Sequence record: NC_041919.1
Source: Escherichia phage HP3
DNA length: 64,000 nucleotides
Reading direction: 5' to 3' (one strand)
Notes under the pieces: generated by a model
Told to the model about the DNA's origin: nothing
What the model saw: only the letters and a program-made list of their open reading frames with translations
Database searches by the model: none
In this document: positions 5,778 to 62,404 of the stretch, in pieces
Position numbering within the stretch: position 1 is the stretch's first letter
Layout of the letters: every line of letters starts with the position of its first letter
Translations under genes and position numbers: made by a program

Positions 5778-5966
5778 ATGAAAATTGAAGCACTTAATCA
5801 AGAAGGAAATATCTACGTCATCATTAATGGTGATTTTTTCGTCGACATGGATGAAGTTACTAGTGAAGAACTTGTAGAACTTCTTAAGAAACGTTATGAT
5901 ATGTGTGATGAAGCTGCAACTCATATGGCGTGTGCAATATTCTCTCTTTCATATGTGGTGGAATAA
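5778..5966 (+). CDS. hypothetical protein (62 aa)
   Basis: ATG 5778 after AAGAGGAG SD; track ORF 5733-5966 trimmed. Confidence 0.5.
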
Positions 5967-6169
5967 TGACTAGAATTGAACAAGCAGATAAAATTAAAGA
6001 ATTGGTAGCTTTAATTCGCAAAGCAGATGAGGAACTTAGTGACTTTGCTTGGTTTTCGGCAGGCATTGCAAATAAAGGTATTGAAAAATTTGAAGCTAAA
6101 GTTGATAATGCTTTAGAAGCGTTAGATATGTTTCTTGATGAAATTATCGATCATAATACGAGAGTTTAA
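5966..6169 (+). CDS. hypothetical protein (67 aa)
   Basis: ATG 5966 overlapping upstream stop; track ORF trimmed. Confidence 0.5.
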   Translation: MTRIEQADKIKELVALIRKADEELSDFAWFSAGIANKGIEKFEAKVDNALEALDMFLDEIIDHNTRV

Positions 6170-6171
6170 TT

Positions 6172-6366
6172 ATGCTAACACGTGAACAGTTTGAAAAAAT
6201 CATTAAATTAGCACGTGATATTGAAATAGATTCATACCAATTAGCAGTTGAGCATTGTGAAGGATATTCATACGACGGTATAGAAGCAGCTAAAAAGGAT
6301 TTGGATAAATCCAAAGCTAAGTTAGTTCAATATCTTGAAATGATTAGGTGGAATAATGAAAACTGA
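6172..6366 (+). CDS. hypothetical protein (64 aa)
   Basis: Track ORF. Confidence 0.5.
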   Translation: MLTREQFEKIIKLARDIEIDSYQLAVEHCEGYSYDGIEAAKKDLDKSKAKLVQYLEMIRWNNEN

Positions 6367-7784: not shown

Positions 7785-8246
7785 ATGATTATTAATGAAA
7801 ACTCTTGGCACTATAAATTATTCAAATTGTTTAACGATGAATGGCAACGACCTAAGACGCTGTGCGCATACTTTTGGTCTATTGTTATCCCTACATTTTT
7901 CGTTTCTTTTTTCGGATGTACTATACTCGTAGGTCTAACTATCATCTGCGCAGAAATCATACAGAAATGGCTTATTTTTGGTAGTTTATGGACTCTTATT
8001 CCATCAGCATTTATACTTGCCATTTTGCTTGTTTTACTTATTGTCGGTTCATTTGTTATTCCTGCACAACTGCGTGAAAAATATAAAGATTATAAATGGA
8101 AAAAGGATTATGCTTTACACGTAGAAAATATTGATAGGGCGTATAAAGGTTTACCTCCTATTCAACCCAAGAAATCGATTATCGTTGAATTTTTAAAAGC
8201 TCGTAAAGCTAAAGTATGTCCTGTTATTGAATATAAGGCTGAATGA
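7785..8246 (+). CDS. multi-pass membrane protein (153 aa)
   Basis: Two long hydrophobic segments FWSIVIPTFFVSFFGCTILVGLTIICAEI and LWTLIPSAFILAILLVLLIVGSFVI. Confidence 0.6.
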   Translation: MIINENSWHYKLFKLFNDEWQRPKTLCAYFWSIVIPTFFVSFFGCTILVGLTIICAEIIQKWLIFGSLWTLIPSAFILAILLVLLIVGSFVIPAQLREKYKDYKWKKDYALHVENIDRAYKGLPPIQPKKSIIVEFLKARKAKVCPVIEYKAE

Positions 8247-9256
8247 TGAAAACAGTAATGAAAAGCTATTTTGGTAGTCATCTTTATGGAACTTCTACCC
8301 CAGAATCTGATGTAGATTTTAAAGAAATCTTTGTTCCTCCTGCTCGTGATATTCTTATCGGAAATGTTAAAGAGCACATGAGTAAAAACACTAACAACAC
8401 ATCATCTAAAAACACTAAAGATGATATTGACCATGAACTATACAGTCTTAAATATTTCTTTAAATTAGCAGCAGATGGTGAAACTGTAGCGTTAGATATG
8501 CTTCACACTCCACCTGAACTAGTGGTTAAATCTGATTTGCCTGATGTGTGGAAGTTTATTCAAGACAACCGTTCTCGTTTTTATACGACTAACATGAAAT
8601 CCTATTTAGGATATGTCCGTAAGCAAGCTTCTAAATACGGCGTTAAGGGTTCTCGTTTGGCTGCATTACGTGATGTATTGAAAGTAGTTAATCAAATCCC
8701 TGAGCAATGGGTTGATTACCAAGAAGATGGTTCTATTAAGCAGCGTCGTACTAAAGTTGAAGATATTAAGCATCGTCTTCCAGAAAACGAATTCTGTGAA
8801 TGGGTGTTCCATAATCATGAGAAAACAGGCCCACAGACGTTCTACACAGTGTTGGGTCGTAAATATCAGACAACGCTTTCTCTTATTGAGCTTAAGCAGT
8901 CACTGAACAAATTAGATGCTGAATACGGTGAACGTGCTCGTAAGGCCGAAGCCAATGAAGGTATTGACTGGAAAGCTATGAGTCATGCTTGCCGTGGTGG
9001 ACTCCAACTATTGGAAATTTACAAAACTGGTGACTTGGTTTATCCACTCCAAGATGCTCCATTTATTCTCGACGTGAAGTTGGGTAAACATCCATTTAAA
9101 ACGGTTCAAGAGTTTTTGGAAGATGTGGTCGATCAAGTAGAAGCAGCATCTACTGAAGCTTCTAAGAACGGTATGCAGCAAAAAGTAGACATGGGTTTTT
9201 GGGATGACTTCCTTGAGAGGGTTTATCTTGAAAACCACCGAAGTTATTATAAATGA
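8243..9256 (+). CDS. nucleotidyltransferase-fold protein (337 aa)
   Basis: N-terminal FGSHLYGTSTPESDVDF fits the pol-beta-type G[GS]x9-13 DxD motif, third acidic residue in VALDML; ATGA overlap with upstream gene. Confidence 0.6.
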   Translation: MMKTVMKSYFGSHLYGTSTPESDVDFKEIFVPPARDILIGNVKEHMSKNTNNTSSKNTKDDIDHELYSLKYFFKLAADGETVALDMLHTPPELVVKSDLPDVWKFIQDNRSRFYTTNMKSYLGYVRKQASKYGVKGSRLAALRDVLKVVNQIPEQWVDYQEDGSIKQRRTKVEDIKHRLPENEFCEWVFHNHEKTGPQTFYTVLGRKYQTTLSLIELKQSLNKLDAEYGERARKAEANEGIDWKAMSHACRGGLQLLEIYKTGDLVYPLQDAPFILDVKLGKHPFKTVQEFLEDVVDQVEAASTEASKNGMQQKVDMGFWDDFLERVYLENHRSYYK

Positions 9257-9258
9257 TA

Positions 9259-9283
9259 GGGAGCCTTCGGGCTCCCTTTTTTT
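9259..9283 (+). terminator. rho-independent terminator
   Basis: GGGAGCC-TTCG-GGCTCCC + TTTTTTT. Confidence 0.85.
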
Positions 9284-9307
9284 ATTTCAAAAATTTTTCA
9301 CAAAATT

Positions 9308-9337
9308 GTTTACAAGCATAAAGCTTTATGGTACTAT
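9308..9337 (+). promoter_or_regulatory. T4-type early promoter with conserved leader
   Basis: GTTTAC 9308-9313, TACTAT 9332-9337; leader nearly identical to the one at 36377-36446. Confidence 0.6.
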
Positions 9338-9371
9338 ACAACTATCAACTGATACGGATTTGGAGAATAAA

Positions 9372-10340
9372 ATGAAAACTGTAACTATCAATAAGGGTAT
9401 CTACTTCGGTAAAGAAATCTCTGGAACTTTTGAGCTCTTAGGTGAATGGTTCCCAGATAATGCTCCGGTAGATGCACAAGGAGATGGTAAAGTTTTTGTT
9501 GAAATTGACGGTAAGCGTCGCGGTGTTTGGGTTTACAAATCAGACATTTCATATGATGGTGTAAAAGTTGAAGAAGTTAAAGAATCGTATGAAGATATGA
9601 AAACCCGCATTAATAAAAGATTTAATGTTATGGGAATGATGACGAATGGTATTATTAACGGAAACATTCGTTCATTAATTATCTCTGGTGCGGCGGGTAT
9701 TGGTAAAACGTATTCTTTAGATAAAGCTTTAAATAAAGCAAATGATATTGGATACATTGAATATAAAAGCATTAATGGTAAAATCTCTGGTATTGGTCTT
9801 TATGAGCAGCTTTGGAATAATCGTGAAGAGAATTCTGTACTTTTGATTGATGATGTGGATGTTTTCTCTGATATGGACATTCTTAATCTTCTGAAAGCTG
9901 CTCTGGACACCGGAGAGACCCGCAAAGTCTGCTGGAGCACTGCATCTTCTTACTTAGAAGAAAAAGGCATTGAGCGTGAGTTTGAATTTAAAGGAACGAT
10001 TGTTTTTATCACAAACGTTGACATTGACCGCGAATTAGACCGTGGTACTAAACTTGCTCCACATTTACAAGCATTAGTTTCCCGCTCGGTTTATTTAGAT
10101 TTGGGTGTTCACACTAATGAAGAAATTATGGTCAGGGTTGAAGATGTTATTCTTTCAACTGACATGATGCAAAAACGCGGTCTTTCTGATGAAGAAACTT
10201 ATAAAGCATTATCATGGATGAAAGTCAATGTTAATCGTTTACGCAATGTTTCACTGCGTACTGCACTTTATCTTGCTGACTTTATTATGACCGACAAAAA
10301 CGGTTGGGAAGAAATCGCTGAGGTTACTCTTCTGAAATAA
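9372..10340 (+). CDS. P-loop NTPase / AAA-like ATPase (322 aa)
   Basis: Walker A SGAAGIGKT, Walker B VLLIDDVD; ATG 9372 after GGAG SD; track ORF 9204-10340 trimmed. Confidence 0.7.
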   Translation: MKTVTINKGIYFGKEISGTFELLGEWFPDNAPVDAQGDGKVFVEIDGKRRGVWVYKSDISYDGVKVEEVKESYEDMKTRINKRFNVMGMMTNGIINGNIRSLIISGAAGIGKTYSLDKALNKANDIGYIEYKSINGKISGIGLYEQLWNNREENSVLLIDDVDVFSDMDILNLLKAALDTGETRKVCWSTASSYLEEKGIEREFEFKGTIVFITNVDIDRELDRGTKLAPHLQALVSRSVYLDLGVHTNEEIMVRVEDVILSTDMMQKRGLSDEETYKALSWMKVNVNRLRNVSLRTALYLADFIMTDKNGWEEIAEVTLLK

Positions 10341-10746: not shown

Positions 10747-10776
10747 GTTTACAAGACTGTTCCTCTGTGGTACTAT
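10747..10776 (+). promoter_or_regulatory. T4-type early promoter
   Basis: GTTTAC 10747-10752, TACTAT 10771-10776; shares TGGTACTATACAACTATCAACTAC leader motif. Confidence 0.6.
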
Positions 10777-11332: not shown

Positions 11333-11387
11333 CCGCTTTATACCAAGGATGGTATAATGGTTCTAAGCCCTTTTAATTGAGATTATT

Positions 11388-11795
11388 ATGAAACAGTTGA
11401 TAATTAAAAGATTGAATTTATTGATATGTTGTTTATGTGTAGTAGTTGCATATGGTTATTACGCAATTAATGATTATATGCATTATAAAGATTATGATGT
11501 TACTGTAGTTAATACCTTTACAGGAACTCAAGGAAAGGGGTCTAGTTTATCGTTTATTGCTGTATATGAACTCAAAGACGGTTATAGATTTAGCGAATAT
11601 ATTTCACCAGAGATGTATTCATCAATAGAAAAAGGCGATAATATTACTGTAAGTTTACGTCCTTTCGACGTAAAACAGACATTGTTTGATAATATTGTTT
11701 GGTTCTTTGGAATGGTATTAGTTCAATCTGTGTGTGGTGCTTATATAGTCTGTTCCATCTTATTCTGTATATTTAGTAAAATTGAAATTGAGTGA
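11388..11795 (+). CDS. membrane protein (135 aa)
   Basis: Hydrophobic N- and C-terminal segments. Confidence 0.5.
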   Translation: MKQLIIKRLNLLICCLCVVVAYGYYAINDYMHYKDYDVTVVNTFTGTQGKGSSLSFIAVYELKDGYRFSEYISPEMYSSIEKGDNITVSLRPFDVKQTLFDNIVWFFGMVLVQSVCGAYIVCSILFCIFSKIEIE

Positions 11796-11802
11796 GGAAA
11801 AT

Positions 11803-12690
11803 ATGTCAGTAGTAATTAATAATGTCAATGCAGTAATTAAATCTTTAGTTAATAAAAAATTGAATGAATGGACTGTACTTCGTCGTGGAGAGCCAGATAA
11901 ATTTTTTCATAGATTTAACCCAACTTTGGATTTGAATGTTATTGACAGAGATGTTCATGCTGAAATTTTAGATAAATTTAAAGTTGATATTGGGTTTGGA
12001 TTAGATAAACATTTACAACGAACAAACGGGTCTGGAATGGGTTTATCTAATCGCATCATGAAAGCCCTTAATAAAATTGGAGCGTTGTCTCGTATTAATG
12101 CGAGTGAAATCCTTCGCAATTATAATAAAGGATATGACCTTTATGGTCGATTAATGCCGAAATTATCATTTGACCAAATGATCGCAGATTTGTGGGAAAA
12201 TCAACGACGATTATTAGCATTAGGCGCTCGATTAGCTAAAGGTCTAGATAAACAAATGATTTTTAAGACCAATAATACAGAAGACCTTAAATGCTTTAAA
12301 TTTAGTATTCGTGGCGATGATTATTATATCAGAGCTCACTCTACAGATTATGTTAATATGGGGCATCATCTCTGTTTAGCTTTTGAAGTTTTAAAAGAAG
12401 CCGGAACATTAGAATATTCATCTGGTGCAAAATGCCCTATTGGTTCAAGTTGTATTTTAATTTATCGCCCGGATGAATCCAGTTCAACTAAATTGCCTAC
12501 AAAACCTGTACCAGTTCGTAGTAATGAAAAACATTCTGAGCAAATTGATTATTTTAATAAGCAAATTGAAGAGCTGAATATTTCTATTCAACAATATGAT
12601 GATGAAATTTTCAGACTATCTGGACTGAGTAGTAAAGCTAAATCTGAGCGTGAAAAGTTAATTAAAATTATCGATTTACTTAAATCTTAA
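11803..12690 (+). CDS. paralog family B member 1 (295 aa), C-terminal coiled coil
   Basis: ATG 11803 after TGAGGAAAAT; shared motif WENQRRLLALGARL; heptad-rich tail. Confidence 0.6.
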   Translation: MSVVINNVNAVIKSLVNKKLNEWTVLRRGEPDKFFHRFNPTLDLNVIDRDVHAEILDKFKVDIGFGLDKHLQRTNGSGMGLSNRIMKALNKIGALSRINASEILRNYNKGYDLYGRLMPKLSFDQMIADLWENQRRLLALGARLAKGLDKQMIFKTNNTEDLKCFKFSIRGDDYYIRAHSTDYVNMGHHLCLAFEVLKEAGTLEYSSGAKCPIGSSCILIYRPDESSSTKLPTKPVPVRSNEKHSEQIDYFNKQIEELNISIQQYDDEIFRLSGLSSKAKSEREKLIKIIDLLKS

Positions 12691-12698
12691 GGAACACC

Positions 12699-13721
12699 AT
12701 GAAAACTCGTTCTCAAATTGAAGATATGGTTCGTAATGCCAGCTATACTCGTGATGCTATGACATTTTTGTGCGAAAATAATTTAGACCTTGGTAAAGTT
12801 AATTGTTCCATTCACGCCTTTAAACATCTGAACAGCAGTGAATGGGTGCGTAATTTTAATGAAGCTGGGTATATTACTCAAATGACTGCTCGTGAACAGC
12901 TCACCGATTTCTGTAAAACTATTGATTATAAAAATCCTCTATTTGTTCAAGGTGTTGGTCAGAGTAAGGTCGATTTATCATCTGGATTTTTCAATCCAAA
13001 TCATTATCGTATTGAATGGAGATTTATTGCTCTATTCCGTAAACAATTAAAGCAAATTTTGTCTACTGCTAGTCGATTAAAAGGTTCTGATATTAACTTA
13101 AAGAATCTGAAATTTGATGGTTATACTCTTCAGATGGAAGTAAGACCATTAAAAGAAAATAACAGAACTGCACGAATTAGCTTTAAACCTAATACAAAAA
13201 ATTCTCTTTCAATTTGTGAATGCCTTAAATCACAGTTGACAGAAGCATTTAAGTATATGGATGTAGTTGCCGCGGTTCAGTCTAAGATTTTACCTCATTT
13301 TGAGCGAAATTGGGAACATACAACAACGTATGAACTTGATATGATCGTTTCATTTAAATACGATTTTTTGAGAAAGGACGAAGTCCCGCAAGAGAAAAAG
13401 CAGGAAGTGCAAGATATCTTAAATTTATCCAATTACTCATCAAACGATCCTAAATTTTGGATGTATAGTTCAGGTAATAAAGATACATGGAAATTCAATA
13501 AAGTGAATTTTCTTCCTGTTGAAAATCCGAGTCTTAAACCTGTTGAAAAATGGCACGCGGATGCGATTGAGAAGTCTATCAAGGCAGTAGATGATGAACT
13601 CGTTAAAGCAACTAATGAAGTGTTAGAAGCTGAAAAGATGCTAGAAAAAGCTCAAGAAAAAGTCAAAAATCTTACGAAGCAACGTTCTAAACTGAACAAC
13701 GCACTAAATGCACTAAACTAG
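12699..13721 (+). CDS. paralog family B member 2 (340 aa)
   Basis: Motif WRFIALFRKQLKQILSTASRL aligns with next ORF; coiled-coil tail. Confidence 0.65.
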   Translation: MKTRSQIEDMVRNASYTRDAMTFLCENNLDLGKVNCSIHAFKHLNSSEWVRNFNEAGYITQMTAREQLTDFCKTIDYKNPLFVQGVGQSKVDLSSGFFNPNHYRIEWRFIALFRKQLKQILSTASRLKGSDINLKNLKFDGYTLQMEVRPLKENNRTARISFKPNTKNSLSICECLKSQLTEAFKYMDVVAAVQSKILPHFERNWEHTTTYELDMIVSFKYDFLRKDEVPQEKKQEVQDILNLSNYSSNDPKFWMYSSGNKDTWKFNKVNFLPVENPSLKPVEKWHADAIEKSIKAVDDELVKATNEVLEAEKMLEKAQEKVKNLTKQRSKLNNALNALN

Positions 13722-13750
13722 TTTACTTTGCCACAAGGATGTGGTATAAT
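13721..13750 (+). promoter_or_regulatory. T4-type early promoter (duplicate of 59958-59987)
   Basis: GTTTAC 13721-13726, TATAAT 13745-13750; 30-nt block nearly identical to the 59958 copy. Confidence 0.65.
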
Positions 13751-13778
13751 GTTCTTACTTTCTACTGAGGAGATTAAT

Positions 13779-14780
13779 ATGACTCGTAACGAATATATCA
13801 AATCATTCAATAGCGTTATTGATGATAAAGTTAAACCTGTGTTTAGTCAGAATAGTGTTATTTCCATTATCAATCAATGGCTCAATAATATTGATGCAAG
13901 TATTGTTTCTTCAAGCAAATTTATTCATGAAGTTCATAAAATTTCTAGTCGCGAATATAAAGATGATATTAAGGAAACTTTTAAAGGTTCTCGTCTTCTT
14001 TCATATTTAGTTAATCAAGATATTCTTGGTAAATTTGGGAAAGAAATTAAACGAACTAAAGATGTAGTAGGATACAGTTGGTTCGGTGATGTTAATTCTT
14101 ATCATCTTAATAATAAAGAAGACCCTGAGAATATTTTTACTCGTCGTTGGATTAGTAATTTTAGACTTTTCAAGAAGCAAATTCTAAAATCAGCTTCTAA
14201 ATTATGCTATGGTGATTATCGTCAAATCCATCCTTGGGCTTCTGATATGATTATCATAAAAGAATATGAGCTTGATAAAAATAAAGCAGCTATTTTTGTG
14301 AATTATGAATTTTTTACACCAGAAGCTAATCAAAAGAACATTAATAAATTTTTCTCAATTGCTAGCGATATAACTCGTCAGTTAGAGACCGCATTACTTT
14401 GTATGGAAACAGTAGAAAATATTCATACTTATCCTTTTAAGAATATATGCGGTTGGGAAGGATATAAAATTGTAGTTAGTCTCCGTGAAGTAAAGTGTGC
14501 GTACTCACCGACTGATAAAGAAATTTACCAACAAAAATGTGATGAAATTGTGAATACTCCTAAAGAAGAAACTACCCTTGAGGAACTAATGGAATGTCTT
14601 GACGATTCGCCTGAACCAGTAGAAATTCGTCCAGAAGTTATTGCACTAGAAAAAGCTTATAAAGAAGTTCTAGAAATTTCTAATAAAGCGCAGAAAGAAT
14701 ATGAGCAGGCTAAAAAGATTTGGGAAGAATCCGTTAATCGTCTTGATCGTCTTGAACAAGCTTTACAGTTAATTAAGTAA
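13779..14780 (+). CDS. paralog family B member 3 (333 aa)
   Basis: ATG 13779 after GAGGAG SD; motif WISNFRLFKKQILKSASKL; coiled-coil tail. Confidence 0.65.
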   Translation: MTRNEYIKSFNSVIDDKVKPVFSQNSVISIINQWLNNIDASIVSSSKFIHEVHKISSREYKDDIKETFKGSRLLSYLVNQDILGKFGKEIKRTKDVVGYSWFGDVNSYHLNNKEDPENIFTRRWISNFRLFKKQILKSASKLCYGDYRQIHPWASDMIIIKEYELDKNKAAIFVNYEFFTPEANQKNINKFFSIASDITRQLETALLCMETVENIHTYPFKNICGWEGYKIVVSLREVKCAYSPTDKEIYQQKCDEIVNTPKEETTLEELMECLDDSPEPVEIRPEVIALEKAYKEVLEISNKAQKEYEQAKKIWEESVNRLDRLEQALQLIK

Positions 14781-14832
14781 TTTAAAGCCAAGGATGGCTC
14801 GGAGTATAAACCATTAACCAAGTGAGAAGAAT

Positions 14833-15762
14833 ATGAAAACTCGTAAACATTATATTGATTATTTTGACAGTCTTATTACTAAACACCGTAATTATCAGAT
14901 CGGGCACAGAGCAGTAATCAATAATATTCTTCGTGATTTCCTTCAATATGTTGGTCAGGAAAATCATATCTGTAAAGATACTCAAAACGCTTATTCTCAT
15001 TCGTTAGGCAATTTGCTTGAATGGTTTAAACGTTCTCGTATGTTATCTTCTACTGTAGCTCATGAGAACATTAAAAACTTTATGAAGCCGAGCTTCATTA
15101 AATCTGAGACATCTATAACCGATTTGGTTGAATTTACTATTGTTAATGATGTTAAAAAGACTCATTTGGCTGATTGGTTTTCTACCATTCCTGAAACTAA
15201 ATTTGCTGATAAATTTGCTTGTCAATTCAATGACCAAGTGAATATGCTTTTTAAGCATGCTCGCAAACTATTTACCGCGGGCGATGACCGTACAAATACA
15301 GTTCATGTTAAGGACTGGGTTATTGCTGATGAAGTAACACACAAGCCAGGTGGTTCATCAGTATTAATTAATATCCAGGTTCCTTATTATTACTCACGTA
15401 ATCTTGGCACCATGACAGCTAAAGAAATTAATAAGCACAACAAAACTATTCGTTCGTTGTCTTATAAACTCCGCATGATGTTAAAAATTATGGACGTAGT
15501 GGAAATGTATGACGAAACCGAAGATAATGGTTCAATGTTATACAGTTCACGCATTCTAATTAAACTGAAGAACCCTAATACATATAAGACAGTTGTAAAA
15601 GAGCCTAAAGTAGAAAAGGTTGATAATCTGAGTGAAGAACGTGAATATCTCAATGCCCGTTTGATTGAAGTTGAAGCCCAAATTGCAGAACACACCAAAT
15701 TGTTAAAAGCTCTTAATGCAAAAGCAAATGGTTTACGTAATGCTATTGAGGTATTGAAATGA
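14833..15762 (+). CDS. paralog family B member 4 (309 aa)
   Basis: Starts MKTR like member 2; motif FNDQVNMLFKHARKL; coiled-coil tail. Confidence 0.65.
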   Translation: MKTRKHYIDYFDSLITKHRNYQIGHRAVINNILRDFLQYVGQENHICKDTQNAYSHSLGNLLEWFKRSRMLSSTVAHENIKNFMKPSFIKSETSITDLVEFTIVNDVKKTHLADWFSTIPETKFADKFACQFNDQVNMLFKHARKLFTAGDDRTNTVHVKDWVIADEVTHKPGGSSVLINIQVPYYYSRNLGTMTAKEINKHNKTIRSLSYKLRMMLKIMDVVEMYDETEDNGSMLYSSRILIKLKNPNTYKTVVKEPKVEKVDNLSEEREYLNARLIEVEAQIAEHTKLLKALNAKANGLRNAIEVLK

Positions 15763-16148
15763 AAAAGCGTTTATTAGAAGACATTGCAGCTTCAAGTAAT
15801 TCCAGTTTAATTAAAATTATTATGGCTGGTGAGGAAGATGATATGGAAATGCGTGGAAAGATTCACGGCTGCGACGATTTAGATTTTAAACCTCCAGCAT
15901 GGGATGCTATTATGGCTATGGTTGAACGACGTGAAAGAGCTTCTAAAAACGTTCCTAATTGCCCTGAATGCGGTACTGAACAAGTTCAGTTGATTAACTG
16001 GCGTAAACCAGAGCTTGAATATAAATGCCGTCAATGTAAACATAAATTCAGTAAGCATGCTCCGGAAATGGTTAAATTGCCTGACTCTACTGAGTTCTTT
16101 AAAGAACTTGTGAGTGTTCAACCAATGCCTAATAATATTTTGGATTAA
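15759..16148 (+). CDS. zinc-ribbon protein (129 aa)
   Basis: CPECG...CRQC four-Cys ribbon. Confidence 0.55.
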
Positions 16149-58113: not shown

Positions 58114-58140
58114 ATTCCCGAAACCAAACGAGGATAAGTG

Positions 58141-59958
58141 ATGATTAAGAATGAAATTAAAATTCTGAGCGATATTGAACATATCAAAAAGCGTAGCGGC
58201 ATGTATATTGGCTCTTCTGCTAATGAAATGCATGAGCGCTTTCTGTTTGGTAAATGGGAAAGTGTTCAGTATGTACCTGGTCTTGTTAAGCTTATTGATG
58301 AAATTATCGATAACTCAGTAGATGAAGGTATTCGTACTAAGTTTAAATTCGCAAATAAAATTAATGTTACTATTAAAAACAATCAAGTAACAGTTGAAGA
58401 TAACGGTCGCGGTATTCCACAAGCGATGGTCAAAACACCTACCGGTGAAGAAATTCCTGGTCCTGTTGCTGCATGGACTATTCCAAAAGCAGGTGGTAAC
58501 TTTGGTGATGATAAAGAACGTGTCACCGGTGGTATGAATGGTGTTGGTTCTAGTTTGACAAACATTTTTTCTGTGATGTTTGTCGGTGAAACTGGTGATG
58601 GTCAAAATAATATTGTAGTTCGTTGTTCAAATGGCATGGAAAATAAATCATGGGAAGATATTCCTGGAAAATGGAAAGGAACTCGTGTTACTTTCATTCC
58701 TGATTTTATGTCATTTGAAACTAATGAGCTGTCTCAGGTTTATCTTGACATTACACTGGACCGTCTCCAGACACTCGCAGTAGTTTATCCTGATATTCAA
58801 TTTACCTTTAATGGTAAAAAGGTTCAGGGCAATTTTAAGAAATATGCACGCCAATATGATGAGCATGCTATTGTTCAAGAACAAGAAAATTGTTCTATTG
58901 CGGTTGGTCGTTCACCGGATGGTTTTCGTCAATTAACATACGTTAATAACATTCATACTAAGAATGGTGGCCATCACATTGACTGTGTTATGGATGATAT
59001 TTGTGAAGACCTTATTCCACAAATCAAACGTAAGTTCAAAATTGATGTGACTAAAGCACGCGTTAAAGAATGTTTGACTATCGTTATGTTTGTCCGTGAT
59101 ATGAAAAACATGCGATTTGATTCTCAAACTAAAGAGCGTTTGACTTCTCCATTTGGTGAAATCCGTAGTCATATTCAACTTGATGCTAAAAAGATTTCAC
59201 GTGCTATTCTAAATAATGAAGCAATTCTAATGCCGATTATTGAAGCTGCTTTGGCTCGTAAATTGGCGGCAGAAAAAGCAGCAGAAACTAAAGCAGCTAA
59301 AAAGGCTTCTAAAGCTAAGGTTCATAAACATATCAAAGCGAATCTTTGTGGTAAAGATGCTGACACTACTCTTTTCTTGACTGAGGGTGATTCGGCTATC
59401 GGATATCTTATTGATGTTCGTGATAAAGAACTTCATGGTGGTTATCCATTGCGCGGTAAAGTTCTCAACAGTTGGGGTATGTCATATGCTGATATGCTTA
59501 AAAACAAAGAATTGTTTGATATTTGCGCAATCACTGGATTAGTTCTCGGTGAAAAAGCTGAAAACTTGAATTATCATAATATCGCTATTATGACTGATGC
59601 TGACCATGATGGTCTAGGAAGCATTTATCCTTCTCTGCTCGGGTTTTTTAGTAATTGGCCAGAACTGTTTGAGCAAGGAAGAATTCGTTTTGTCAAAACT
59701 CCTGTAATCATCGCTCAGGTCGGTAAAAAACAAGAATGGTTTTATACAGTCGCTGAATATGAGAGTGCTAAAGATGCTCTACCTAAACATAGCATCCGTT
59801 ATATTAAAGGACTTGGCTCTTTGGAAAAATCTGAATATCGTGAGATGATTCAAAATCCAGTATATGATGTTGTTAAACTTCCTGAGAACTGGAAAGAGCT
59901 TTTTGAAATGCTCATGGGAGATAATGCTGACCTTCGTAAAGAATGGATGAGCCAGTAG
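58141..59958 (+). CDS. 39: topoisomerase II ATPase subunit, single continuous ORF (605 aa)
   Basis: GHKL ATPase motifs (EIIDNSVDE, DNGRGIP, GGMNGVGSS); 605 aa without interruption. Confidence 0.93.
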   Translation: MIKNEIKILSDIEHIKKRSGMYIGSSANEMHERFLFGKWESVQYVPGLVKLIDEIIDNSVDEGIRTKFKFANKINVTIKNNQVTVEDNGRGIPQAMVKTPTGEEIPGPVAAWTIPKAGGNFGDDKERVTGGMNGVGSSLTNIFSVMFVGETGDGQNNIVVRCSNGMENKSWEDIPGKWKGTRVTFIPDFMSFETNELSQVYLDITLDRLQTLAVVYPDIQFTFNGKKVQGNFKKYARQYDEHAIVQEQENCSIAVGRSPDGFRQLTYVNNIHTKNGGHHIDCVMDDICEDLIPQIKRKFKIDVTKARVKECLTIVMFVRDMKNMRFDSQTKERLTSPFGEIRSHIQLDAKKISRAILNNEAILMPIIEAALARKLAAEKAAETKAAKKASKAKVHKHIKANLCGKDADTTLFLTEGDSAIGYLIDVRDKELHGGYPLRGKVLNSWGMSYADMLKNKELFDICAITGLVLGEKAENLNYHNIAIMTDADHDGLGSIYPSLLGFFSNWPELFEQGRIRFVKTPVIIAQVGKKQEWFYTVAEYESAKDALPKHSIRYIKGLGSLEKSEYREMIQNPVYDVVKLPENWKELFEMLMGDNADLRKEWMSQ

Positions 59959-59987
59959 TTTACTTTACCACAAGGATGTGGTATAAT
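59958..59987 (+). promoter_or_regulatory. T4-type early promoter (duplicate of 13721-13750)
   Basis: GTTTAC 59958-59963 overlapping gene 39 stop, TATAAT 59982-59987. Confidence 0.6.
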
Positions 59988-60012
59988 TAATTGGGCAAAT
60001 GAGGATATTGAA

Positions 60013-60216
60013 ATGAAATCATATAAAGTAAATTTAGAACTTTTTGATAAAGCAGTTCATCGAGAATATAGAATCATTCAACGCTTTTTCGATATGGGAG
60101 AAGCCGAAGAATTTAAAAACCGCTTTAAAGATATTAGAGATAAAATTCAATCCGACACTGCAACTAAAGATGAATTACTAGAAGTTGCTGAAGTTATTAA
60201 GCGTAATATGAATTAA
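60013..60216 (+). CDS. hypothetical protein (67 aa)
   Basis: Track ORF with GAGGA SD. Confidence 0.5.
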
Positions 60217-60226
60217 TGAGGAAATT

Positions 60227-62404
60227 ATGATTATCACCACTGAAAAAGAAACAATTCTTGGCAATGGTTCTAAATCAAAAGCATTTAGCATCACAGCATC
60301 TCCTAAAGTATTTAAAATTCTGTCATCTGATTTGTATACAAACAAGATTCGTGCAGTAGTCCGTGAATTAATTACTAATATGATTGATGCCCATGCACTT
60401 AATGGAAATCCTGAAAAATTTATCATACAAGTTCCAGGACGATTAGATCCGCGATTTGTTTGTCGAGATTTTGGTCCGGGTATGAGTGATTTTGATATTC
60501 AGGGTGATGATAATTCTCCTGGGTTATATAATTCATACTTCAGTTCATCTAAGGCTGAATCTAATGACTTTATTGGCGGGTTTGGTTTAGGTTCTAAATC
60601 TCCGTTTAGTTATACTGATACATTTAGTATTACTTCGTATCATAAAGGTGAAATTCGTGGTTATGTAGCTTACATGGATGGTGATGGTCCACAGATTAAA
60701 CCTACATTCGTAAAAGAAATGGGTCCAGATGATAAAACTGGTATTGAAATCGTAGTTCCAGTTGAAGAAAAAGACTTTAGAAACTTTGCTTATGAAGTTT
60801 CTTATATCATGCGACCATTCAAAGATTTGGCTATCATTAATGGTCTTGACCGCGAAATTGATTATTTTCCGGATTTTGATGACTATTACGGTGTAAATCC
60901 AGAAAGATACTGGCCTGATCGTGGTGGATTATATGCTATCTATGGCGGTATTGTTTATCCTATCGATGGTGTTATTAGAGACCGTAACTGGCTAAGCATT
61001 CGCAATGAAGTGAATTACATTAAGTTTCCAATGGGTTCACTTGATATTGCTCCATCTCGCGAGGCTCTTTCACTGGATGATCGTACTCGTAAAAATATTA
61101 TTGAACGAGTTAAAGAACTCAGTGAGAAAGCATTTAATGAAGATGTAAAACGATTTAAAGAATCCACATCTCCCCGTCATACATATCGTGAATTGATGAA
61201 GATGGGATATTCTGCTCGAGATTATATGATTAGTAATTCAGTCAAATTTACGACTAAAAATCTGTCATATAAGAAGATGCAAAGCATGTTTGAACCTGAT
61301 AGTAAGTTATGCAATGCAGGAGTTGTGTATGAAGTAAATCTTGACCCTCGACTGAAGCGCATTAAGCAAAGTCATGAAACTTCAGCCGTTGCATCAAGTT
61401 ATCGTCTGTTTGGTATTAATGCAACAAAAATTAATATCGTTATTGATAATATTAAAAATCGTGTTAATATTGTCCGTGGATTAGCACATGCGTTAGATGA
61501 TAGTGAATTTAATAACACTTTGAATATTCATCACAACGAACGCCTTCTGTTTATTAATCCAGAAGTAGAATCGCAGATTGATTTGCTTCCTGATATTATG
61601 GCGATGTTTGAAAGTGATGAAGTTAACATTCATTATTTGTCAGAAATCGAAGCTTTAGTTAAAAGCTATATTCCAAAGGTAGTTAAAAGTAAAGCTCCTC
61701 GTCCTAAAGCTGCTACAGCATTTAAGTTTGAAATTAAAGACGGGCGCTGGGAAAAAGAGGAATTATTTACGCTCACATCAGAAGCAGATGAAATTACTGG
61801 GTATGTAGCGTATATGCATCGTTCTGATATTTTCTCTATGGATGGTACTACATCTCTTTGTCATCCATCTATGAATATTTTGATTCGTATGGCTAATCTT
61901 ATTGGCATTAATGAGTTTTATGTTATTCGTCCGCTTTTGCAGAAAAAGGTAAAAGAACTCGGTCAGTGCCAATGTATTTTTGAAACTCTGCGTGATTTAT
62001 ATGTAGATGCTTTTGATGATGTAGATTATGATAAGTACGTAGGTTATTCAAGTTCAGCTCAACGATATATTGATAAAATTATCAAGTATCCTGAACTAGA
62101 TTTTATGATGAAGTACTTCAGTACAGATGAAGTTTCTGAAGAATATACACGACTCGCTAATATAGTTAGTTCATTGCGCGGTGTATATTTTAATGGTGGA
62201 AAAGATACCATCGGTCATGACATCTGGACAGTAACTAATCTCTTTGATGAATTATCACGTAATGCTTCAAAAAATAGTGATAAAATGGTTGCTGAGTTTA
62301 CCAAGAAATTCCGTATTGTTTCCGACTTCATCGGTTATCGTAACTCTTTGAGTGATGATGAAGTTTCCCAAATCGCTAAAACTATGAAGGCCCTTGCGGC
62401 CTAA
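60227..62404 (+). CDS. rIIA: rIIA membrane-associated protein (725 aa)
   Basis: 725 aa; immediately upstream of 312-aa rIIB. Confidence 0.9.

Follow-up and report, generated by a model that had tools for sequence, protein, structure and literature searches.

The four consecutive genes at positions 11803-15762 of a 64,000-nucleotide stretch of the genome of Escherichia phage HP3 (NC_041919.1; the whole stretch is referred to here as the window) form a tandem array of diverged paralogs, the counterparts of nrdC.6, nrdC.5, nrdC.4 and nrdC.3 of phage T4. They will be referred to as A, B, C and D. The array is a lineage-specific tandem expansion of one family, and the reading that we favor, with moderate confidence, is that this family is restricted to T4-like phages and serves in counter-defence against host immune proteins.

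The region 11700-15800 is 100% identical to that of Escherichia phage HP3.1/HP3.2 in a sequence search, and has at least 80% identity to 655 phage records, nearly all from Tequatrovirus and its relatives. Judged by its sequence, the source phage of the window is a Tequatrovirus. The GC content is approximately 34% across the whole window. The array is located in the nrdC-mobD hyperplastic region and is read in the early direction, with nrdC.7, nrdC.8, nrdC.9, nrdC.10 and nrdC.11 on its 5' side and nrdC.2, nrdC.1 and nrdC on its 3' side. The initial annotation had described four consecutive genes of 295-340 amino acids (aa), and open reading frames (ORFs) of 295, 340, 333 and 309 aa are indeed found here. 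All are on the + strand and map gene for gene on the T4 reference, and each is preceded by a good ribosome-binding site of the GAGG type, 6-8 nucleotides (nt) 5' of the ATG.

11803-12690, + strand: gene A, 295 aa; orthologue of T4 nrdC.6 (Y05B; Pfam PF26899 Phage_T4_Y05B, phrog_2257)
12699-13721, + strand: gene B, 340 aa; orthologue of T4 nrdC.5 (Y05A; Pfam DUF7235 PF23882, phrog_2351)
13779-14780, + strand: gene C, 333 aa; orthologue of T4 nrdC.4 (Pfam PF26897 Phage_T4_Y04OP, phrog_1435)
14833-15762, + strand: gene D, 309 aa; orthologue of T4 nrdC.3 (phrog_1435)

The match of A to the phrog_2257 profile covers its full length (E 5e-153), and PF26899 is a precomputed assignment on homologues that are 96-98% identical to A. 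B scores 419.8 bits against DUF7235 (PF23882; gathering cutoff 30) over residues 1-340, and is 91% identical to T4 NrdC.5 over 331 aa, at the same genomic position. Both C and D match the phrog_1435 profile (E 2e-166 and 8e-116, respectively). PF26897 is precomputed on all homologues of C, and its assignment to C rests on the annotation of these homologues together with the phrog_1435 match. C and D are already one family in PHROGs, and PF26897 likewise merges nrdC.3 with nrdC.4 (Y04O and Y04P of T4).

Homology and architecture of the four proteins

Pairwise BLASTP among the four proteins gives a significant match for C and D alone (E 5e-6, 25% identity over 229 aa), the other five of the six pairs being non-significant. 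The description of the genes as paralogs therefore needed evidence from profiles and structures, which was obtained. Family alignments were built from a large protein database and the fetched loci, and were compared with HHalign. C and D align with a probability of 98.2% (E 4e-14) over 211 columns from residue 1, and B and C with a probability of 92% (E 6.6e-7) over 187 columns. Both alignments span the family motif (see below) and the long helix after it. Moreover, B, C, D and the distant members have a common N-terminal start, M(x)TR..(Y)I. The N-terminal halves had been described as highly diverged, which is right only in part, given this common start and the alignment of C and D from their first residue. 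On these alignments B, C and D are certainly homologous to each other, and a chance match of the motif with no full-length similarity is ruled out for them.

A search through 1.84 billion representative proteins with the B+C+D profile finds 17 proteins in all, including new distant members from Klebsiella phages. So small a number indicates that the family is confined to T4-like phages. Searches of PDB sequences with all four proteins find no relatives, and scans with NCBIfam and PADLOC give only sub-threshold noise.

The homology of A to the other three proteins is very probable, on weaker evidence than that for B, C and D. Three independent lines of evidence support it. The A profile is collinear with a B/C/D profile enriched with distant members, with a local score of 41.5 (probability 69%, E 4e-5) and a global score of 42 (92%), compared to top scores of 31 (local) and 21 (global) among the controls (reversed and 15 block-shuffled). 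In addition, a single-copy, syntenic protein of the Enterobacter phage IME523 is matched by the hidden Markov model (HMM) of B/C/D (E 1e-13) and independently by that of A (E 2e-8), with LALGARLAKGLDKQMIFKT of A aligned to LTLGSRLCVGSSRELEFKT. Finally, the predicted structures find each other's relatives. In Foldseek searches of BFVD, the model of A matches, after its own family, uncharacterised 305-335-aa proteins of T4-like phages from Enterobacter, Pectobacterium, Acinetobacter and Yersinia hosts. The model of C directly matches NrdC.6 of phage JS10, a member of the A family (E 7.5e-5, probability 1.0), and the two models have seven further T4-like-phage matches in common. The paralogy proposed in the initial annotation is thus well founded for all four genes, most strongly for B, C and D.

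The AlphaFold2 models of A and C have mean confidence scores (predicted local distance difference test, pLDDT) of 79 and 85.6, and the same order of elements: N-terminal helices, a small sheet, a helix-kink-helix, a β-hairpin, a long helix, a second β-hairpin, a low-confidence linker, and a long C-terminal helix. In Pfam, PF26897 Y04OP (which includes C and D), DUF7235 and PF26899 Y05B (which includes A) are kept as three unrelated families of unknown function, whereas here they are united. No precedent was found in the literature searched for treating Y05B, DUF7235 and Y04OP as a single superfamily that shares one architecture.

The conserved internal helix motif noted earlier is a genuine signature of the family. 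The four motif strings occupy the same columns in the profile-profile alignments (B-C, C-D, and A against B/C/D), and correspond to the helix-kink-helix in the AlphaFold models (helices 123-132 and 134-144 in A, 119-130 and 132-142 in C).

12193-12234, + strand: motif of A, WENQRRLLALGARL, aa 131-144; forms the second half of the helix-kink-helix; highest conservation within the A family
13017-13079, + strand: motif of B, WRFIALFRKQLKQILSTASRL, aa 107-127; from the profile alignment
14148-14204, + strand: motif of C, WISNFRLFKKQILKSASKL, aa 124-142; from the profile alignment and the model
15226-15270, + strand: motif of D, FNDQVNMLFKHARKL, aa 132-146

Each protein was also said to end in a heptad-rich tail of about 40 residues, and this is confirmed. 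The last 42 residues of each protein are in a single unbroken heptad register, in which 83-92% of the a/d positions are hydrophobic. The register is identical in all four proteins relative to the terminal ...L(L/I/V)K, and it exceeds that of shuffled sequences with P values from <0.0005 (0/2000) to 0.03 across the four tails. Together with the long terminal helices in the models, the heptad repeat most likely reflects a coiled coil, through which the proteins may oligomerise.

12562-12687, + strand: heptad tail of A, last 42 aa, by the heptad test; model helices 242-271 and 277-294
13593-13718, + strand: heptad tail of B, last 42 aa; 92% hydrophobic a/d positions, equalled by 0/2000 shuffles
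14652-14777, + strand: heptad tail of C, last 42 aa, by the heptad test; model helix 285-332
15634-15759, + strand: heptad tail of D, last 42 aa, by the heptad test

A few observations concern individual proteins. The nrdC.6 gene of the T4 reference (NC_000866, 8008-8894, minus strand; corresponding to 11803-12690 of the window) has a frameshift at codon 258, and its product is annotated with a length of 275 aa. In another frame the coiled-coil tail is intact (aa 259-295, with 95% identity to the tail encoded in the window), and the frameshift may be either a sequencing error or a genuine truncation in the T4 laboratory strain. In the N-terminal helical domain of D, residues 30-86 weakly match, below threshold, the SAM-like (core-binding) domain found at the N-terminus of the tyrosine recombinases XerC/XerD (NCBIfam E 0.003-0.03; Pfam Phage_int_SAM_1 E 0.12), and this may be no more than the likeness of a generic helical bundle.

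Divergence and rearrangement of the array

The proteins of the array are 97% (A), 91% (B), 92% (C) and 61% (D) identical to those of T4, compared to 97-100% for the flanking proteins, except for nrdC.7 (91%) and nrdC.2 (78%). Between genera, the flanks hold 68-91% identity, and A, B and C show 22-47% or are missing. D is an exception here, its allele being closer to that of Mosigvirus (WFbE185, 77% identity) than to that of T4. Its synonymous divergence (dS) from T4 is roughly 1.0, against about 0.1-0.2 for its neighbors, which identifies D as an old, swapped allele. Three classes of D alleles can be told apart in 652 phage records, with identities of at least 90%, about 75% and about 60%.

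The gene-wide ratios of nonsynonymous to synonymous substitution rates (dN/dS) are 0.08-0.14 for A, 0.19-0.24 for B, 0.14-0.17 for C and 0.3 for D, compared to 0-0.06 for nrdC.10, nrdC.8 and nrdC. The proposal of a rapidly diversifying family holds relative to the flanks, both in sequence identity and in these ratios, which are 3-10 times higher in the array. It does not hold in the stricter sense of a gene-wide ratio above 1.

The number of copies also varies. Kanagawavirus IME523 and Marfavirus F48 have a single copy, Mosigvirus WFbE185 and phage C6 have three, and Tequatrovirus has four. Phage ACG-C40 carries a natural deletion of 2.9 kb (at 5805-6216), from codon 69 of nrdC.5 (B) to codon 238 of nrdC.3 (D). 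In a chimeric protein (P0056), residues 146-272 of B are fused to residues 129-309 of D at a FNKVN/FNDQVN microhomology, and C is missing. The NrdC.6 protein (A) of phage Sf25 has an in-frame internal duplication of 83 aa (P0121), and a protein of 173 aa (P0237) combines an unrelated N-terminus with an identical NrdC.5 (B) tail.

A proposed counter-defence function and its alternatives

The experimental link to host defence comes from T4. A T4 clone with deletions is unable to infect ECOR17 owing to the Dsr1 sirtuin defence, and plasmid-borne T4 nrdC.5 alone restores infection of Dsr1-carrying MG1655 (Srikant et al. eLife 2022, PMC9391042). B is the orthologue of this protein, the homology of C and D to it is demonstrable, and that of A is probable; the anti-Dsr1 activity is known from the T4 protein, to which A, C and D have 13-25% identity and from which they are separated as other Pfam/PHROG families. 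The initial annotation had proposed a family of host-interaction or anti-defence proteins. That proposal has experimental support for one member, the syntenic T4 counterpart of B, and we extend it to A, C and D by inference: as one copy disarms Dsr1, these three are good candidates for further immune-evasion factors. Moreover, the nearby nrdC.1 inhibits Septu (bioRxiv 10.1101/2025.11.20.689424) and gene 49.2 inhibits OLD (PMC13096335), which places the array in an anti-defence neighborhood.

The array resembles other hyperplastic loci of T4-like genomes (gp49.2, NrdC.1, the internal-protein (IP) locus and the PeSL cassettes described below), which likewise have early promoters of the form TTTACW-N17-TAYWAT, insertions and deletions, alleles swapped among close relatives, and host-range genes that are dispensable. 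The gp49.2 and NrdC.1 genes lie in its neighborhood. Those loci hold unrelated small genes, however, whereas the array is a tandem expansion of one family of about 300 aa.

The array most likely encodes a battery of stoichiometric counter-defence proteins. They have a common build, with an N-terminal helical domain, the helix-kink-helix, an α/β core of two β-hairpins around a long helix, a disordered linker, and a C-terminal heptad helix of about 45 residues, which most likely oligomerises the protein as a coiled coil. Transcription starts immediately after infection from sigma-70-type early promoters (probably at 10747 for A and B, and at 13721 for C and D; see below), and the genes are dispensable for growth on laboratory hosts. 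NrdC.5 (B) neutralises the host immune protein Dsr1, a sirtuin that depletes nicotinamide adenine dinucleotide (NAD). The scaffold and tail would be retained, with variable surfaces in the N-terminal domain and the β-sheet region tuned to different host immune sensors or alleles, and copies and alleles would be gained, lost and swapped through recombination.

It is plausible, by analogy, that NrdC.5 acts by binding directly to the sensor or the SIR2 domain of Dsr1. The analogy is with DSAD1, the inhibitor of DSR2 from SPbeta-type phages, which attaches to the sensor region of this SIR2-domain NADase and thereby blocks the defence. No relation in sequence or fold was found between DSAD1 and NrdC.5, however, and the two host systems differ in what they sense: the tail tube in the case of DSR2, and the phage major capsid protein, as reported, in the case of the Dsr1 sensor (PMC13581612).

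Several results weigh against a single counter-defence family of four. For A, pairwise BLAST finds no link to B, C or D, HHalign against each single family gives a probability of <3% (not significant), and the A-family HMM matches none of the B/C/D sequences (best E 0.03). The template-modeling (TM) scores between the families in Foldseek are modest (0.36-0.49), with large root-mean-square deviations, probably in part due to flexible linkers and tails in the models. Leave-one-family-out HMMs of the 50-residue tails never retrieve the tail of the omitted family. The likeness of the tails is therefore architectural and not demonstrably homologous, and homology is not claimed for them. The gene-wide dN/dS is below 1 in all four genes, so that evolution is faster and no more, and pervasive positive selection is not shown. 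With regard to function, curated anti-defence and defence models match none of the four proteins, and the experimental support is confined to NrdC.5.

The alternative that we regard as a serious though clearly less probable contender accepts the homology, and takes NrdC.5 alone as a counter-defence protein. The remaining early genes would serve some other accessory purpose, for example in host takeover or regulation, or their products would be the subunits of one hetero-oligomer assembled through the tails. No function is reported for nrdC.3, nrdC.4 or nrdC.6 in the literature searched, A is under fairly strong purifying selection within Tequatrovirus, with its dN/dS of 0.08-0.14, and the identical heptad register relative to the C-terminus would suit a hetero-oligomer. 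The tails have no detectable sequence homology, however, and plasmid-expressed NrdC.5 alone suffices against Dsr1. In addition, a copy number of 1, 3 or 4 together with losses and swaps of individual genes is hard to reconcile with an obligate complex. A separate and unlikely reading is that the α/β core is an exapted tail-terminator-like structural fold, and that the early coiled-coil paralogs act as decoys, occupying the host pattern-recognition sensors of conserved virion proteins (of the Dsr1/Avs type). If true, a different sensor would be mimicked or blocked by each of the paralogs before the structural proteins are made, and the phage would possess a 'decoy library' built from a virion gene.

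The remaining explanations deny either the homology or the function. That the motif and tails arose by chance or convergence in an array of unrelated ORFs of similar size is highly improbable, and already refuted for B, C and D, which align with probabilities of 92-98% over 190-210 collinear columns. This explanation would fit the five non-significant BLASTP pairs, the three separate families of Pfam and PHROGs, and the fact that coiled coils are alike in composition without homology; for A, it is opposed by the HHalign scores above all controls, the IME523 bridge and the reciprocal Foldseek matches. We give still less credence to thioredoxin-like or nucleotide-metabolism proteins, or to structural proteins of the virion (of the tail-terminator type). 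Hundreds of GenBank records label the homologues of nrdC.3-nrdC.6 'thioredoxin' or 'Thioredoxin, phage-associated', a label that appears to derive from the locus name. None of the four proteins matches the thioredoxin/glutaredoxin profiles of Pfam and NCBIfam at E <= 1, and none has a CxxC motif, and the label is therefore a propagated mis-annotation. The similarity to the tail terminator/completion fold (lambda gpU, DUF3168, SPP1 gp17-like) is a grey-zone score with 4-11% identity, and in contrast to that fold the array family has an extra N-terminal domain, a coiled-coil tail, early expression and dispensability. Neighboring genes in T6 also bear plainly wrong names, for example 'tail sheath stabilizer'.

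The T4 ORFs themselves, the counter-defence role of NrdC.5 and the Pfam merger of nrdC.3 and nrdC.4 were already known. Literature searches by the ORF names Y05A, Y04O/P, Y05B and DUF7235 returned nothing relevant, and the prediction that nrdC.3, nrdC.4 and nrdC.6 are counter-defence paralogs was not found stated in the literature searched. It would turn three orphan genes of the best-studied phage into counter-defence candidates. Variation in alleles and copy number at this locus may also help explain differences in host range among therapeutic T4-like phages such as HP3.

Early promoters and neighboring genes

Three early promoters bear on the array, of which one is a distant copy.

10747-10776, + strand: early promoter 5' of nrdC.8, of the T4 type; fits GTTTAC-N18-TANNNT and the sigma-70 scan; an equivalent is annotated in phage ASO78A
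13721-13750, + strand: early promoter for C and D, GTTTAC-N18-TATAAT; fits the T4 early pattern and the sigma-70 scan; the same site is annotated in ASO78A
59958-59987, + strand: second copy of the promoter at 13721; 29/30 positions identical (32/33 with flanks), 0 expected by chance

The promoter at 10747 probably drives a transcription unit of nrdC.8, nrdC.7, A and B, with the extent of the operon inferred. The GTTTAC-N18-TANNNT pattern has 19 matches in the window, compared to 0.8 expected. All 19 are on the + strand, indicating that the whole 64-kb window is early-transcribed in one direction. The earlier observation that one member has its own early promoter, duplicated 46 kb away, is correct on both counts. 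The copy lies between gene 39 (a topoisomerase II subunit) and a small ORF before rIIA. As they are in direct orientation, recombination between them would remove 46 kb with essential genes in it, and they are therefore more readily understood as a conserved regulatory cassette that occurs twice than as a functional pair. A comparison of the B-C and C-D intergenic spacers, as a sign of a duplicated promoter, finds no significant homology (P = 0.125).

Promoter-early stem-loop (PeSL) cassettes, in which a TTTACW-N17-TAYWAT promoter has a stem-loop just upstream, recur in the hyperplastic regions of T4-like phages, and it has been proposed that recombination takes place at them (Comeau et al. 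2014, PMC4122927). The promoter at 13721 fits this consensus and has a dispersed, near-identical copy. However, its inverted repeat, CCACAAGGATGTGG, which is also present in the copy at 59958, is within the spacer and not upstream as in PeSLs, and the promoter is therefore not classed as one.

A related 10-mer, CCAAGGATGG, is a small hairpin with an AGGA loop, and has exactly three occurrences, at 11343-11352 (+), 14228-14237 (-) and 14788-14797 (+). All are inside or beside the array, and two of the three are intergenic, next to TATAAT/TATAAA. Variants of it (related to CCACAAGGATGTGG) are at 13731-13744 and 59968-59981, and five matches are found when one mismatch is allowed, compared to 1.6 expected.

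Gene 39, near the distant promoter copy, is a single topoisomerase ORF of 605 aa, not split as are 39/60 in T4 (region 58138-62404). On the 3' side of this copy, a small ORF from 60014 is followed by rIIA at 60227-62404.

Three neighboring genes were considered as further members of the family and rejected. The nrdC.8 protein also ends in heptads, but is matched neither by the family HMMs nor by the tail HMM. The nrdC.10 and nrdC.11 proteins (8243-10340, 5' of the array) are similar in size to those of the array and are unrelated to them, nrdC.10 being Walker-A (GAAGIGKT) ATPase-like and nrdC.11 an RlaP-type nucleotidyltransferase. Unlike the array, these two are 78-82% conserved across genera. 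Directly 3' of the array, the fast-diverging nrdC.2 homologue (15759-16148) has 129 aa compared to 104 aa in T4, with the 78% identity limited to the first 99 residues, and contains a zinc-ribbon-like pair, CPEC...CRQC.

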